Shown: in pieces, positions 2,609-42,780 of the stretch
Layout: each line of letters begins with the position of its first letter
Position numbering within the stretch: position 1 is the stretch's first letter
NCBI RefSeq assembly: GCF_001677475.2
Contig: NZ_CP015229.1
DNA: 64,000 bases
Source of the DNA: Escherichia coli
Lineage (GTDB): Bacteria; Pseudomonadota; Gammaproteobacteria; Enterobacterales; Enterobacteriaceae
Reading direction: 5' to 3' (one strand)
The notes under the pieces: model-generated
The model's database searches: none
Seen by the model: the letters and a program-made list of their open reading frames with translations, nothing else
Told to the model about the DNA's origin: nothing
Translations under genes and position numbers: made by a program

Positions 2609-4198
2609 TTAATGGCGGAAGTGGCGCATGTCGGTGAAGAGCATTGCAATACCGTGTTCATCGGCGGCGGCAATCACTTCGTCATCACGGATAGAACCGC
2701 CAGGCTGGATTACGCAGGTCACGCCCGCAGCGGCGGCGGCATCAATACCGTCGCGGAACGGGAAGAACGCGTCAGAAGCCATCGAGGAACCTTTCACTTC
2801 CAGACCTTCATCGGCCGCTTTAATACCGGCGATTTTCGCGGAGTACACGCGGCTCATCTGGCCCGCGCCAATGCCGATGGTCATATTGTTTTTGGCATAG
2901 ACGATGGCGTTGGATTTCACGAACTTCGCCACCTTCCAGCAGAACAGCGCATCACGCAGTTCCTGTTCGCTCGGCTGGCGTTTGGTGACGACGCGCAGTT
3001 CTTCCGCACCGACCATGCCCAGATCGCGATCCTGAACCAGCAGACCGCCGTTCACGCGTTTGAAATCAAGACCCGGAACACGCTCGCCCCACTGACTGCA
3101 GGTCAGGACGCGTACGTTCTGTTTGGTGGCGGTGATTTTCAGGGCTTCTTCGCTGGCGGACGGCGCAATAATCACTTCAACAAACTGACGAGAAATGATG
3201 GCCTGCGCGGTTTCCGCATCCAGCTCGCGGTTAAAGGCGATAATGCCGCCGAATGCGGAGGTCGGGTCGGTTTTGTACGCGCGATCGTAAGCATCAAGAA
3301 TGGAATTGCCGATAGCCACGCCGCAAGGGTTGGCGTGCTTCACAATCACACATGCCGGCTCGGCGAACTCTTTCACGCACTCCAGCGCCGCATCGGTATC
3401 GGCGATGTTGTTATAAGAGAGGGCTTTACCCTGAACCTGGATTGCGGTAGCAACGGAGGCTTCTTTCACATTCTCTTCTATATAGAAGGCAGCCTGCTGG
3501 TGGCTGTTCTCGCCGTAACGCATATCCTGCTTCTTAATGAAGTTCAGGTTCAGCGTGCGTGGGAAGCGACCGGCGGCTTCTTTGCTTTCACCGTGATAGG
3601 CTGGGACCATGCTGCCGAAGTAGTTGGCAATCATGCTGTCGTAGGCGGCGGTATGTTCAAAGGCTTTGATAGCGAGATCGAAACGGGTTGCAAGCAGAAG
3701 CGATCCTTCGTTGGCATCCATCTCTTTAATGATGGCGTCGTAGTCGCTGCTCTTCACCACGATGGCGACATCTTTATGGTTCTTGGCGGCGGAGCGCACC
3801 ATCGTTGGGCCGCCGATATCGATGTTCTCAACCGCATCTTCCAGCGAGCAACCTTCACGGGCAACGGTCTGGGCGAACGGATACAGGTTAACAACCACCA
3901 TATCGATAGGCTGGATCTGATGTTCTTCCATAATGGCATCGTCCTGGCCGCGACGGCCCAGAATGCCACCATGTACTTTCGGATGCAGGGTCTTCACGCG
4001 TCCATCCATCATCTCCGGGAAACCGGTGTAATCGGAAACTTCGGTTACCGGCAGACCTTTTTCTGCTAACAGACGGGCAGTGCCCCCTGTAGACAGCAGC
4101 TCCACACCGCGTGCGGAAAGTGCCTGGGCGAATTCGACGATACCGGCTTTGTCAGAAACACTGAGCAGAGCGCGGCGGACTGGACGACGTTGTTGCAT
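2609..4198 (-). CDS. purH: Bifunctional AICAR transformylase / IMP cyclohydrolase
   Basis: 529-aa ORF recognised as PurH; immediately upstream of purD on the same strand. Confidence 0.95.
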
Positions 4199-37914: not shown

Positions 37915-37934
37915 TTTAAAAACCTTAATAACAA

Positions 37935-37960
37935 TGCCGACGTTATGTCGGCATTTTTTT
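37935..37960 (+). terminator. Rho-independent terminator after pgi
   Basis: tgccgacgttatgtcggca hairpin followed by ttttttt. Confidence 0.85.
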
Positions 37961-38268
37961 ATCAGATAAATCCCCTTGTCTGTGATTTAACGGAAATCAT
38001 ACCGTGAGGTTAATCCTAAAATAGATTTTTAATCGTTGTTTATTTCGGAAAATACGCAGATTAATTACTTTTGTTTTTATTTTAAGTTTATGATTTTTAT
38101 TGTTATTTAAATATAAGTTGAAACTTATATTTGATATTCATTCCAATTATCCTAAAACGCCATCGCTAATTCCCCGCGCCGTAATTCGCATGCTTTAGTT
38201 GTGTATACTCGATCCCGCCCGAAATGTTTTTGGGTAAATCTCCATTCATTCAATGAAGGGAAATTGTT

Positions 38269-38511
38269 ATGAAAAAAGTTCTGTATGGCATTTTTGCCAT
38301 ATCTGCGCTTGCGGCGACTTCTGCGTGGGCTGCACCTGTACAGGTGGGCGAAGCGGCAGGGTCGGCAGCAACGTCGGTTTCGGCGGGTAGTTCCTCCGCG
38401 ACCAGCGTCAGCACCGTAAGCTCGGCGGTGGGTGTCGCGCTCGCGGCAACCGGTGGCGGTGATGGTTCTAATACCGGGACCACAACAACCACAACCACCA
38501 GTACCCAGTAA
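38269..38511 (+). CDS. yjbE: Small secreted low-complexity protein YjbE
   Basis: 80-aa ORF with signal peptide and Ser/Ala/Thr-rich tail ending in a poly-Thr run; first gene of yjbEFGH. Confidence 0.85.
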
Positions 38512-38697
38512 TAAAGTATGTATCCCCAAAATAATTCGAGTTGCAGGAAGGCGACAAGCGAGTGAGTCCCCGGGAGCATAGATAACTATGTGACCGGGGT
38601 GAACGAGTGCGGTCACCGCATCTGCAGCTTGAAGTATGAAGGGGATTAACCATAACCACACTCCGGTGTGGTTATTCTGCCCCTCTGGAGAAGAGTC

Positions 38698-39333
38698 GTG
38701 AAGCGACCTGCACTCATTCTTATCTGTCTGCTATTACAGGCCTGTTCAGCCACGACTAAAGAGCTGGGCAATTCACTGTGGGACAGTCTGTTCGGCACGC
38801 CAGGCGTACAGCTGACGGATGATGATATTCAAAATATGCCCTACGCCAGCCAGTACATGCAGCTTAATGGCGGGCCGCAATTGTTTGTGGTGCTGGCCTT
38901 CGCTGAAGACGGACAACAAAAATGGGTCACTCAGGATCAGGCCACTCTCGTCACACAACATGGTCGTCTGGTGAAGACTTTGCTTGGTGGCGACAACCTG
39001 ATTGAAGTGAATAACCTTGCCACTGACCCGCTGATTAAACCCGCACAAATTGTTGATGGTGCAACATGGACGCGCACGATGGGCTGGACCGAGTACCAGC
39101 AGGTACGCTACGCCACCGCACGCTCAGTCTTCAAATGGGATGGCACCGATACCGTCAAAGTCGGCAGCGATGAAACCCCGGTTCGCGTGCTGGACGAAGA
39201 AGTCTCCACCGACCAGGCGCGCTGGCATAACCGCTATTGGATCGACAGCGAAGGGCAAATTCGCCAGTCGGAACAGTATCTCGGCGCGGATTATTTCCCG
39301 GTGAAAACCACTCTCATCAAGGCGGCAAAATAA
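38698..39333 (+). CDS. yjbF: Lipoprotein YjbF
   Basis: ORF 38668..39333; likely GTG start at 38698 preceded by GGAG; lipobox LLQAC. Confidence 0.8.
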   Translation: MKRPALILICLLLQACSATTKELGNSLWDSLFGTPGVQLTDDDIQNMPYASQYMQLNGGPQLFVVLAFAEDGQQKWVTQDQATLVTQHGRLVKTLLGGDNLIEVNNLATDPLIKPAQIVDGATWTRTMGWTEYQQVRYATARSVFKWDGTDTVKVGSDETPVRVLDEEVSTDQARWHNRYWIDSEGQIRQSEQYLGADYFPVKTTLIKAAK

Positions 39334-40070
39334 TGATTAAACAAACTATTGTCGCGTTGCTTTTGAGTGTGGGAGCGTCATCGGTCTTCGCGGCAGGAAC
39401 CGTCAAGGTGTTCAGCAATGGCAGCAGTGAGGCCAAAACGCTAACGGGCGCAGAGCATTTAATCGATCTGGTAGGCCAACCGCGGCTGGCAAACAGCTGG
39501 TGGCCTGGTGCGGTGATTAGCGAAGAGCTGGCAACGGCGGCAGCATTGCGTCAGCAGCAGGCGTTGCTGACACGGCTGGCAGAACAGGGCGCAGATTCCA
39601 GCGCCGACGATGCCGCTGCGATTAACGCCTTACGCCAGCAAATTCAGGCGTTGAAAGTGACGGGCAGGCAAAAAATCAATTTTGATCCCGATATCGTCCG
39701 CGTTGCCGAACGCGGTAACCCGCCGTTGCAGGGCAACTACACGCTGTGGGTCGGACCACCGCCGTCCACGGTCACGCTGTTCGGGCTTATCAGCCGTCCT
39801 GGCAAGCAGTCATTCACTCCAGGTCGCGACGTGGCGAGCTATCTCTCTGACCAGAGCCTGCTCAGCGGTGCGGATCGCAGCTACGCATGGGTGGTTTACC
39901 CGGACGGACGCACGCAAAAAGCGCCGGTGGCTTACTGGAACAAGCGTCACGTAGAGCCGATGCCCGGCAGCATTATTTATGTTGGCCTCGCGGACTCCGT
40001 CTGGAGTGAGACGCCTGATGCCCTTAACGCCGACATTCTTCAGACTCTGACGCAGCGGATACCTCAATAA
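39333..40070 (+). CDS. yjbG: Periplasmic protein YjbG
   Basis: ORF 39237..40070; start at internal ATG ([20 protein letters not shown]) overlapping the yjbF stop in a TAATG junction; 245 aa with signal peptide. Confidence 0.85.
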
Positions 40071-42166
40071 TGAAAAAAAGACATCTGCTTAGCTTACTGG
40101 CGCTGGGCATTAGCACAGCTTGCTACGGCGAAACATATCCTGCGCCCATTGGTCCGTCGCAGTCGGATTTCGGTGGCGTAGGATTATTACAAACGCCCAC
40201 CGCGCGCATGGCGCGGGAAGGGGAGTTAAGCCTGAACTATCGAGATAACGATCAGTACCGTTATTACTCAGCTTCAGTGCAACTCTTCCCGTGGCTGGAA
40301 ACAACGCTGCGTTACACCGACGTGCGCACCCGGCAGTACAGCAGCGTCGAAGCGTTCTCTGGCGATCAAACGTATAAAGATAAAGCCTTCGATCTCAAAC
40401 TGCGTTTGTGGGAAGAGAGTTATTGGCTGCCGCAAGTGGCGGTTGGTGCGCGGGATATCGGCGGTACGGGGCTGTTTGATGCGGAATATCTTGTTGCCAG
40501 CAAAGCCTGGGGGCCGTTCGATTTTACACTCGGCCTGGGCTGGGGATATCTGGGCACCAGCGGTAACGTGAAAAATCCGCTCTGTTCAGCCAGTGATAAA
40601 TATTGCTATCGCGATAACAGCTACAAACAGGCGGGATCTATCGACGGTAGCCAGATGTTCCACGGTCCTGCCTCACTGTTTGGCGGCGTGGAATACCAGA
40701 CATCCTGGCAGCCGCTGCGCCTGAAACTGGAGTATGAAGGCAATAATTATCAGCAGGATTTTGCCGGGAAGCTGGAGCAAAAAAGTAAGTTTAACGTCGG
40801 GGCGATTTATCGCGTTACCGATTGGGCCGACGTTAACCTTAGCTATGAACGTGGCAACACCTTTATGTTTGGCGTCACGCTGCGCACCAACTTTAACGAT
40901 CTGCGCCCTTCTTACAACGATAACGCCCGCCCGCAATATCAACCGCAGCCGCAGGATGCCATTTTGCAGCATTCGGTGGTGGCGAATCAGTTAACGCTGT
41001 TGAAATACAATGCCGGACTTGCCGATCCGCAGATCCAGGCGAAAGGCGATACGCTGTATGTTACCGGCGAGCAGGTGAAATATCGTGATTCGCGTGAAGG
41101 GATCATCCGTGCTAATCGGATCGTGATGAACGATCTGCCGGATGGGATCAAAACGATCCGCATTACGGAAAACCGCCTTAACATGCCGCAGGTGACGACG
41201 GAAACCGATGTCGCCAGCCTGAAAAATCATCTCGCCGGAGAGCCGTTGGGCCACGAAACGACGCTGGCGCAAAAACGCGTCGAGCCAGTGGTTCCGAAGT
41301 CCACCGAGCAGGGCTGGTATATCGACAAATCACGCTATGATTTCCATATCGATCCGGTGCTGAACCAGTCGGTCGGTGGCCCGGAAAACTTTTACATGTA
41401 TCAGCTGGGCGTGATGGGAACGGCAGATTTGTGGCTGACGGACCATCTGCTGACCACCGGCAGCCTGTTTGCAAATCTTGCCAACAACTACGACAAGTTT
41501 AACTACACCAATCCGCCGCAGGACTCGCACTTACCGCGCGTTCGTACCCATGTGCGCGAGTATGTGCAGAACGATGTCTATGTGAATAACCTGCAAGCCA
41601 ACTACTTCCAGCATCTGGGCAACGGCTTCTACGGTCAGGTCTATGGAGGTTATCTCGAAACCATGTTTGGCGGTGCGGGGGCAGAAGTGTTGTATCGTCC
41701 GCTGGACAGCAACTGGGCGTTTGGTCTGGATGCCAACTACGTTAAACAGCGCGACTGGCGTAGTGCAAAAGATATGATGAAATTCACCGACTACAGCGTG
41801 AAAACCGGACATCTGACCGCCTACTGGACGCCATCTTTCGCTCAGGATGTGTTAGTGAAAGCCAGCGTCGGGCAGTATCTGGCAGGGGATAAAGGCGGCA
41901 CGCTGGAGATCGCTAAACGCTTTGACAGCGGCGTGGTGGTTGGCGGCTATGCCACGATCACCAACGTTTCGAAAGAGGAGTACGGCGAAGGGGACTTCAC
42001 CAAAGGCGTGTATGTCTCTGTACCGTTGGATCTCTTCTCGTCTGGCCCGACACGCAGCCGTGCGGCGATTGGCTGGACGCCGCTGACGCATGACGGTGGT
42101 CAGCAACTTGGGCGTAAGTTCCAGTTGTATGATATGACCAGCGACCGTAGCGTCAATTTCCGCTAA
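40070..42166 (+). CDS. yjbH: Outer-membrane beta-barrel protein YjbH
   Basis: 698-aa ORF with signal peptide; start overlaps the yjbG stop (TAATG). Confidence 0.88.
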
Positions 42167-42212
42167 GTCATGGGAAAGGTGCCAGTTTTCGCAATCACTG
42201 GCACCCTCATTC

Positions 42213-42491
42213 TTAATGGCCTGTTGAGCCATCAGGAACGCAGTTCACCCCCGGTTTGCGATCTGGTGTGTAAAGGCGAAAACATTCTGTCTTCCTGTCC
42301 GTCGATATCGGTTGCAGGTCTGGTTGCCTGAGCGACTGGGCCATCATTGGGCTGGAGACATTGCTTTGCGGTAGGTCGGCTTTATCAGCAGTACCGAACG
42401 GACCAGCATAAGCAGGAAGAACAGAGACTGATAACATCAAAGCAGCAAAATAAGGCTTCATTTTTACCACCTTTATCAGGTTACGTTTCAT
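42213..42491 (-). CDS. yjbT: Small secreted protein YjbT
   Basis: 92-aa ORF with signal-peptide-like segment (MKPYFAALMLSVSVLPAYA); the start could instead be the internal ATG at 42461. Confidence 0.6.
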   Translation of the reverse strand: MKRNLIKVVKMKPYFAALMLSVSVLPAYAGPFGTADKADLPQSNVSSPMMAQSLRQPDLQPISTDRKTECFRLYTPDRKPGVNCVPDGSTGH

Positions 42492-42592
42492 TTGTTCCAG
42501 AGGAACATTGTCGATTTTTCGCGCATTGCTGGTGGCTGGGAATCACCTGAATGGGTGATTTTTGCAGTACAGGCTATGGTGCGGTTTGTCTT

Positions 42593-42666
42593 GCCGGATG
42601 CGCCGCCAGGCGCGGCTTATCCGGCCTACGGGTAGGACGGATAAGGCGTTCACGCCGCATCCGGCG
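42593..42666. repeat. Tandem REP elements (BIME)
   Basis: gccggatgcgccgccaggcgcggcttatccggcctac followed by ggtaggacggataaggcgttcacgccgcatccggcg. Confidence 0.8.
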
Positions 42667-42780
42667 CTGGCGGGAGGCACCATCTAACACCAGGTTGAAC
42701 AAAACATACACAAAAAATATAGATCTCCGTCACATTTTTGCGTTATACAGGAAGCTCGCCACTGTGAAGGAGGTACTGCT

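Follow-up and report, generated by a model that had tools for sequence, protein, structure and literature searches.

Conserved stop/start overlaps at the yjbF-yjbG-yjbH junctions of Escherichia coli and their bearing on translational coupling

Gene content and start codons of the yjbEFGH locus

The analyzed DNA (64,000 nucleotides; here called the window) was identified as the pgi-yjbEFGH-psiE region of E. coli. All features described below lie on the plus strand. The first gene of the operon, yjbE (38269 to 38511), encodes a protein of 80 amino acids with a Thr-rich C terminus and was recognized from its open reading frame (ORF), its match to Pfam family PF11106 (YjbE; E = 5e-33), and the annotation of the corresponding RefSeq locus. 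With 186 nt between it and yjbF, it takes no part in overlap coupling. The lipoprotein gene yjbF (38698 to 39333) begins with a GTG codon at 38698, where the anti-SD duplex reaches -6.4 kcal/mol, and encodes 211 amino acids in this strain, including the lipobox LLQAC (PF11102; E = 5e-64). It is followed by yjbG (39333 to 40070), encoding a periplasmic GfcC-family protein of 245 amino acids with an N-terminal signal peptide (PF20616 and PF06251), and by yjbH (40070 to 42166), encoding a 698-amino-acid homologue (PF06082; E = 2e-267) of the two-barrel outer-membrane protein GfcD, for which data are available (PMC8592465, PMC11494523). All of these Pfam matches were far above the cut-offs. The names yjbF, yjbG, and yjbH given in the first-pass annotation were thus upheld by Pfam (YjbF, GfcC N- and C-terminal domains, and YjbH, respectively) and agree with RefSeq.

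A small Thr-rich protein, a lipoprotein, a GfcC-family periplasmic protein, and a barrel protein follow one another in the order of a yjbEFGH/gfcABCD-type exopolysaccharide operon, the same order as in K-12 and in the gfc operon. The operon status of yjb goes back to Ferrieres et al. (2007), as cited in PMC11494523, and published work counts the operon as belonging to the Rcs response. Consensus scans, which provide weak evidence, located no promoter-like or terminator-like sites on the plus strand inside yjbF-yjbH.

Direct reading of the sequence and the ORF listing both place TAATG at 39331-39335 and again at 40068-40072, as initially described. At the yjbF/yjbG (F/G) junction (TAATGA, 39331-39336), the yjbF stop codon TAA (39331-39333) overlaps the yjbG start codon ATG (39333-39335), and TGA at 39334-39336 is the stop codon that yjbF used ancestrally. 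At the yjbG/yjbH (G/H) junction (TAATG, 40068-40072), the yjbG stop codon TAA (40068-40070) shares 1 nt with the yjbH start codon ATG (40070-40072), which is followed by AAA AAA AGA. As yjbF ends at 39333, where the yjbG ATG begins, and yjbG ends at 40070, where the yjbH ATG begins, both junctions have a spacing of -1 and belong to the class of 1-nt and 4-nt co-directional stop/start overlaps. The TAATG 5-mer is meaningless by itself; what counts is that it falls on ORF boundaries and is conserved. Only three same-strand overlapping gene pairs occur in the surrounding 44 kb, two of which are the F/G and G/H pairs. The arrangement is an ordinary one and was already known: Larson et al. (2021; PMC8592465) noted overlaps of 1 to 4 bp in gfc "and homologous operons" and proposed coupling and a role in stoichiometry.

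No stop/start overlap would exist if the annotated starts were wrong and yjbG or yjbH began at another codon, which we consider very improbable. Upstream, no stop interrupts the yjbG frame as far as a TTG at 39237, and codons +8, +10, and +12 are TTG or GTG. However, initiation at the upstream TTG would place 32 extra, nonconserved residues before the signal peptide, read in another frame of the conserved yjbF coding sequence, while the downstream candidates would delete the charged n-region (Lys3) and truncate the signal peptide. The ATG at 39333 opens the signal peptide and is aligned with the start in more than 70 orthologues, the start column containing 70 ATG and 1 GTG codons while the downstream codons vary. 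For yjbH, the ATG at 40070 is the sole ATG, GTG, or TTG codon between an in-frame stop at 40025 and codon +20. RefSeq and the K-12 annotation have identical starts. Initiation elsewhere, the point on which the overlaps could have been refuted, was thus rejected after the alternatives had been enumerated. The practical result is that both start codons are confirmed, which is relevant mainly to annotation quality. The A-run behind the yjbH ATG was also considered as a frameshift site and ruled out, because the yjbG stop codon lies upstream of this run.

Conservation of the junctions and a rare yjbF allele

The TAATG at the F/G junction results from a T at position 39331 in place of the usual C, which converts Gln212 of YjbF to a stop codon; this base generates TAA and leaves the old in-frame TGA as a back-up stop. 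In K-12 and strain CFSAN004176, the junction reads CAATGA, YjbF comprises 212 amino acids and terminates at TGA, and the overlap is the 4-nt ATGA. The window therefore encodes a YjbF one codon shorter than that of K-12 (211 versus 212 amino acids), with an F/G spacing of -1 instead of -4. When 5,426 complete RefSeq E. coli genomes were searched by megablast with a 55-nt query centered on 39331, requiring a match at the central base, the T allele was detected in 0 of 5,426 and the C allele in at least 5,376. The 211-amino-acid YjbF is nevertheless encoded by about 35 publicly available contigs, with exact protein matches such as ANO91982.1. The T allele is real but rare. Hence, the initial description of both junctions as TAATG is correct for the window, but at F/G the species-typical state is ATGA; the G/H TAATG and its flanking sequence are identical in K-12. 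Loss of one YjbF residue is probably without consequence. A review (PMC12548453) cites work by Osterman et al. in which coupling was equally efficient at spacings between -4 and +3.

Across 78 other Enterobacteriaceae species, which are phylogenetically related and so do not represent independent events, the F/G spacing was -4 (ATGA or GTGA) in 66 and -1 (TAATG) in 4, while the G/H spacing was -1 (TAATG or TGATG) in 74, -4 in 3, and 0 in 1 (an Enterobacter). Among the eight F/G outliers produced by automatic start picking, six retain ATGA or TAATG in frame, with insertions behind it, and two are frame-disrupted assemblies, such that the motif is physically there in 76 of the 78 species. Insertions directly after the F/G junction were observed in several Buttiauxella, Cedecea, and Dryocola genomes. 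The flanking bases diverge in these species while the junction overlaps are kept. Spacings switched between -4 and -1, with stop and start still touching, are seen in the window, Huaxiibacter, Lelliottia, one metagenome-assembled genome (MAG), and Buttiauxella; these switches appear to be independent and repeated, and never opened a gap. In eight distant homologues (27 to 47% identity), an overlap was found at 14 of 16 junctions, the exceptions being one homologue with a spacing of +3 at F/G and another with +11 at G/H. The layout is thus strongly conserved, yet not indispensable. That stop and start touch in the F-G-H triad from E. coli down to homologues with 27% identity agrees with the published view of the three proteins as acting together, as a single unit, at the outer membrane.

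An SD-like motif inside the upstream gene is clear for yjbG and weak for yjbH. The motif preceding yjbG (AAGGCGG, 39319-39325) lies 7 nt before the yjbG ATG, in the terminal part of yjbF; its anti-SD duplex of -6.9 kcal/mol ranks in the top 3.5% of operon positions. The candidate preceding yjbH (CGGATA, 40056-40061) lies within the 3' end of yjbG, 8 to 10 nt before the yjbH ATG, where it forms the codons Arg CGG and Ile ATA, and its duplex of -3.3 kcal/mol is no better than 37% of operon positions. As the codons of both motifs also encode conserved residues (KAAK and QRIP), constraint at the RNA level can be read from their synonymous positions only. In AAGGCGG, the synonymous third positions are nearly fixed (Lys AAG in 70 of 71 and Ala GCG in 64 of 71 sequences), and flanking third positions have entropies of 1.1 to 1.7 bits. 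The rare codons of CGGATA are likewise conserved (CGG in 73 of 79; ATA or AGA in 64 of 79), and a CGG codon is found 11 to 16 nt ahead of the start in seven of the eight distant homologues. In these alignments, the synonymous sites of both motifs are unusually conserved, far above neighboring third positions.

Comparison with the gfc operon and other overlapping gene pairs

The closest comparison is offered by the paralogous gfcB-gfcC-gfcD genes of the E. coli group 4 capsule operon, which encode the same three protein families as yjbFGH in identical order. The GfcC of K-12 shares 42% identity with the YjbG encoded in the window. The gfc junctions consist of ATGA (-4) at B/C and TGATG (-1) at C/D, a layout matching that of K-12 yjbFGH, although the stop codon at gfc C/D is TGA whereas that at yjb G/H is TAA. 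Furthermore, the gfc triad is followed by gfcE-etp-etk, encoding homologues of Wza, Wzb, and Wzc, whereas yjb is a stand-alone operon. A heterodimer of GfcB and GfcC, with a KD of approximately 100 nM, binds GfcD, and the three proteins assemble at the outer membrane (PMC8592465). For YjbF, YjbG, and YjbH, outer-membrane assembly is assumed by homology. Given this site of assembly in the homologues, the earlier notion of an envelope-spanning export assembly finds no support.

Coupling has been examined experimentally in native E. coli gene pairs. Strict coupling was reported for four of five overlapping pairs, and removal of the SD lowered reinitiation in four of five (PMC6728339). The coupled pairs hyfH-hyfI, astD-astB, ydbH-ynbE, and menD-menH resemble yjbFGH in that both genes run in one direction, their stop and start codons overlap, and the coding region of the first gene contains an SD motif (PMC6728339, PMC10666635). 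They differ in that their overlaps are -4 and their coupling was demonstrated with premature-stop and SD-removal reporters, whereas both junctions in the window are -1 and are known from sequence. Coupling declines steeply with distance, and heteromeric complexes are 4.5-fold enriched among short-distance pairs (PMC10666635). A full-text search for ribosome-profiling papers on yjbG or yjbH returned unrelated papers only, and neither profiling nor reporter results for yjbFGH came to light.

Probable translational coupling and alternative explanations

We infer that a single mRNA probably serves for the coupled, successive translation of yjbF, yjbG, and yjbH, by termination and reinitiation. A ribosome completing yjbF would stop at TAA (39331-39333; TGA at 39334-39336 in most strains), right on the yjbG AUG, and the ribosome or its 30S subunit would reinitiate there, aided by the AAGGCGG motif 7 nt upstream. 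The same hand-over would take place at TAATG (40068-40072), and since the SD-like element at yjbH is weak, this gene should rely more on the upstream ribosome. Synthesis of the lipoprotein, the periplasmic protein, and the outer-membrane barrel would thereby be tied together, and the three proteins might meet at the outer membrane in matched amounts, as may be the case for GfcB, GfcC, and GfcD. The classic translational coupling asserted in the first-pass annotation is thus the best-supported reading, suggested by the conserved -4/-1 overlaps, the synonymous-site conservation of the SD-like motifs, and the native coupled pairs (PMC6728339). Fixed stoichiometry, which had been presented as an implication of coupling, does not follow from it; it is a hypothesis to which the tight GfcB-GfcC heterodimer lends plausibility.

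Alternatively, the overlaps could be by-products of a compact genome, with ribosomes starting de novo on each gene, at a binding site of its own, regardless of upstream translation. The conservation of the protein ends, together with the ease with which NNA TGA mutates to TAA TGA, would then account for the conserved overlaps, with no selection for coupling. This is an unlikely explanation, though the main rival. The layout is common, as 707 of 2,987 unidirectional E. coli gene pairs (24%) have spacings of -8 to +6 (PMC10666635), and exceptions with spacings of +3, +11, and 0 or with insertions exist among the orthologues and distant homologues. The nearby malF and malG, which encode heteromeric partners, are spaced at +14 with no overlap. 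As the yjbG SD is reasonably good (-6.9 kcal/mol), de novo initiation could dominate at this gene, as it does at bioB-bioF. In that pair, stop and start overlap by 4 nt and the SD is weak, like that of yjbH, yet a reporter system showed no coupling because bioF is initiated de novo (PMC6728339). However, the -1 overlap at G/H is the most conserved feature (74 of 78 species) in spite of the weak yjbH SD (-3.3 kcal/mol), overlaps are retained in gfcBCD as well as in homologues whose proteins share as little as 27% identity, and the repeated changes from -4 to -1 never opened a gap.

Coupling might also operate through RNA unfolding, in which a hairpin would pair the SD region of yjbG (and yjbH) with downstream codons 5 to 8 and only a ribosome at the end of the upstream gene would melt it, allowing a new 30S subunit to bind. 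In the minimum-energy folds of both 90-nt junctions, the SD-like segment lies in a stem opposite early downstream codons, with the stop/start in the loop. The fold z-scores are -2.5 and -2.0, with 4 of 200 shuffled sequences folding as well, and the unpaired probability of the E. coli F/G SD and AUG is 0.16, compared with 0.41 when the downstream sequence is codon shuffled. These single-sequence folds are suggestive, but RNAalifold applied to 72 (F/G) or 80 (G/H) orthologous junctions returned neither a consensus structure nor compensatory pairs, and thus no conserved inhibitory structure masking the downstream SD and start. Accessibility of the SD and AUG in the orthologues likewise showed no systematic effect relative to codon-shuffled controls (0.344 versus 0.381 at F/G, lower in 40 of 71; 0.428 versus 0.410 at G/H). 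A conserved masking hairpin was therefore rejected as a general mechanism. As touching stop and start codons constitute the geometry of most efficient reinitiation (PMC10666635, PMC12548453), unfolding is an improbable basis for coupling here.

Termination-reinitiation, if it occurs, could also serve a purpose other than amounts. As YjbF, YjbG, and YjbH are Sec exported and cannot assemble in the cytoplasm, the conserved hand-over might serve spatial co-delivery: the three chains would emerge from one mRNA at one inner-membrane patch, such that YjbF and YjbG meet at once in the periplasm and find YjbH locally. This further reading is speculative, and we regard it as doubtful. Were it true, the rare C-to-T allele at 39331 would offer a natural experiment on whether the F:G ratio responds to the geometry of the overlap. 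Ribosomes might also pause at the conserved rare codons CGG-ATA near the yjbG 3' end, and such a pause could favor reinitiation.

Stop/start overlaps and the rare yjbF allele

The region was identified as E. coli pgi-yjbE-yjbF-yjbG-yjbH-yjbT-psiE-xylE by ORF listing, megablast and RefSeq annotation, and a megablast match was present in 5425 of 5426 complete E. coli genomes. YjbE, YjbF, GfcC (N and C domains) and YjbH were assigned by Pfam with very high scores, and the three proteins of the window are exact matches of ANO91982-ANO91984 (GenBank). Across window positions 38200-42400 (4.2 kb), identity to any of the 5426 complete RefSeq E. coli genomes did not exceed 98.5%, and exact copies of the three proteins occur in one GenBank genome and a few dozen draft contigs. 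The source therefore belongs to a sparsely represented E. coli lineage.

Direct reading of the sequence confirmed the TAATG motifs that the first-pass annotation had placed at both junctions, each a 1-nt stop/start overlap. On the plus strand, the yjbF stop TAA (39331-39333) shares a base with the yjbG ATG (39333), and the yjbG stop TAA (40068-40070) shares one with the yjbH ATG (40070). The surrounding 44 kb contain only three overlapping same-strand pairs, two of them being these junctions; 24% of E. coli unidirectional gene pairs are spaced between -8 and +6 (PMC10666635). The sole other stop/start overlap in this neighbourhood, also of 1 nt, joins sorbose-type PTS IIB/IIA genes ~8 kb upstream of pgi (L092:11437-12338, the CFSAN004176 locus). 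The genes of malF/malG, known complex partners, are spaced by +14.

The yjbG-yjbH TAATG is identical in K-12. At the yjbF-yjbG junction, K-12 and CFSAN004176 carry CAATGA, with a 212-aa YjbF whose TGA stop overlaps the yjbG ATG by 4 nt. In the window, a C-to-T change at 39331 converts Gln212 (CAA) to TAA, and the former TGA stop remains in frame behind it as a back-up. To determine allele frequency, megablast was run with 55 nt of sequence that had position 39331 at its centre; such a query matches only if the central base agrees, as every 28-mer seed spans it. The C allele was found in 5376 of 5426 complete RefSeq E. coli genomes, and the T allele gave 0 matches among them. The 211-aa YjbF is real, being present on about 35 contigs, and the TAATG at this junction is thus a rare allele.

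Start codons were examined by enumerating candidates and by aligning orthologues, and neither approach placed the start of yjbG or yjbH elsewhere. For yjbH, the ATG at 40070 is the sole ATG, GTG or TTG in the interval from the in-frame stop at 40025 to codon +20. The yjbG ATG at 39333 begins a typical signal peptide, and the start column of 71 orthologues contains 70 ATG and 1 GTG. The exception, Escherichia whittamii (L004:3501; CAGTGA), keeps the 4-nt overlap. Starting at the TTG at 39237, upstream of the ATG, would lengthen YjbG by 32 residues taken from yjbF in another frame, and downstream TTG/GTG starts would remove the charged n-region of the signal peptide; both were rejected.

Conservation of the junctions

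A scan of species-representative genomes yielded 80 Enterobacteriaceae loci (YjbG identity, 53-94%), and junctions were counted in the 78 non-E. coli loci with all three genes. At yjbF-yjbG, 66 loci have a 4-nt overlap (one as GTGA), 4 have the 1-nt TAATG and 8 were flagged; two of the latter are frame-disrupted, and six retain an in-frame ATGA/TAATG followed by inserted sequence. At yjbG-yjbH, the 1-nt overlap (TAATG or TGATG) predominates (74 loci), with 3 loci at 4 nt and 1 at a spacing of 0. The 1-nt form at yjbF-yjbG occurs in the scattered lineages of the window, Huaxiibacter, Lelliottia, a metagenome-assembled genome and Buttiauxella, so the switch from 4 to 1 nt occurred repeatedly. 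One change in the final yjbF codon, which is variable, suffices for it, and no gap ever opened.

In several Buttiauxella, Cedecea and Dryocola loci (L066, L071, L072, L076, L077 and L083, at ~3390-3500 in each), in-frame insertions of 5-30 codons separate the ATGA/TAATG from the signal peptide. Some look REP-derived (translating as RSDKRSVIRR), and the real yjbG start in the insertion-bearing loci may lie downstream, uncoupled.

The E. coli paralogue gfcB-gfcC-gfcD likewise has ATGA at its first junction and TGATG at its second. Among eight distant GfcC homologues (27-47% identity) from a 50%-clustered library, the first junction is a 4-nt overlap in seven and a gap of 3 nt in one; the second overlaps by 1 nt in four and by 4 nt in three, and has a gap of 11 nt in one.

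Ribosome-binding signals and translational coupling

The motif upstream of yjbG, AAGGCGG (39319-39325), has a pairing energy of -6.9 kcal/mol with the 16S tail, within the top 3.5% of operon positions. Nothing upstream of yjbH is stronger than CGGATA (40056-40061), an unremarkable -3.3 kcal/mol. Because both motifs fall in codons of conserved C-terminal residues, synonymous positions were analysed. Before yjbG, Lys AAG is kept in 70 of 71 and Ala GCG in 64 of 71 orthologues, with neighbouring third positions at 1.1-1.7 bits of entropy. Before yjbH, the rare codons CGG (73/79) and ATA/AGA (64/79) are retained, and a CGG codon lies 11-16 nt ahead of the start in 7 of the 8 distant homologues. 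This synonymous-site conservation argues for an RNA-level constraint added to the protein constraint.

Termination-reinitiation is the best-supported reading for yjbFGH, given the overlap anatomy, its conservation and published results on other E. coli pairs. A ribosome terminating on the upstream gene would be positioned at the next AUG and restart there, helped at yjbG by the embedded Shine-Dalgarno (SD) motif and relying more on ribosome hand-over at yjbH. Four of five tested E. coli pairs were coupled, bioB-bioF being the one without coupling, and SD removal reduced re-initiation in four of five (PMC6728339). Coupling is also steeply distance-dependent, and short-distance pairs show a 4.5-fold enrichment for heteromeric complexes (PMC10666635). 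A literature search for direct data on yjb coupling, such as ribosome profiling, found none, so this reading is rated somewhat better than even. An alternative model in which coupling depends on unfolding of the junctions draws on single-sequence folds, in which each SD-like segment lies in a stem formed with early codons of the downstream gene (z = -2.5 and -2.0). Across orthologues, no consensus structure or covariation was detected at the junctions, and accessibility of the SD and AUG showed no consistent departure from a codon-shuffled control; unfolding is therefore not supported as the general mechanism.

The protein roles initially named (lipoprotein, periplasmic protein and outer-membrane barrel) were broadly right. 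The fixed stoichiometry proposed with them is a reasonable hypothesis, as a GfcB-GfcC heterodimer (KD ~100 nM) binds GfcD (PMC8592465), but it is not implied by the overlap alone. No support was found for an envelope-spanning assembly: the Gfc homologues assemble at the outer membrane, and GfcD is an outer-membrane protein shown to be no lipoprotein (PMC8592465); the model proposed for it has two barrels exporting lipid-anchored polysaccharide (PMC11494523). The overlaps themselves, and the proposal that they couple translation, are already known from Larson et al. (PMC8592465); added here are the rarity of the yjbF-yjbG TAATG allele, counts of how well each junction is conserved, the signal at synonymous sites within the SD-like motifs and the negative result on a conserved masking hairpin.

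Repeats and RNA matches near the operon

The yjbE-yjbF spacer contains a 124-nt ERIC-like repeat (38520-38643), an imperfect palindrome with sub-threshold Rfam matches to V_AS5, Ysr49 and CssrA. K-12 has the same element minus 72 nt internally (spacer, 113 nt versus 186 nt in the window), and the element probably explains some extra megablast places per genome. The enterobacterial sRNA STnc430 (Rfam) matched the minus strand at 37923-38072 with 77.7 bits (gathering threshold, 47), just downstream of pgi and antisense to the pgi terminator hairpin (37933-37955). Between yjbT and psiE, three sub-threshold matches to the REP-type naRNA4 on both strands (42534-42678) suggest a REP cluster.
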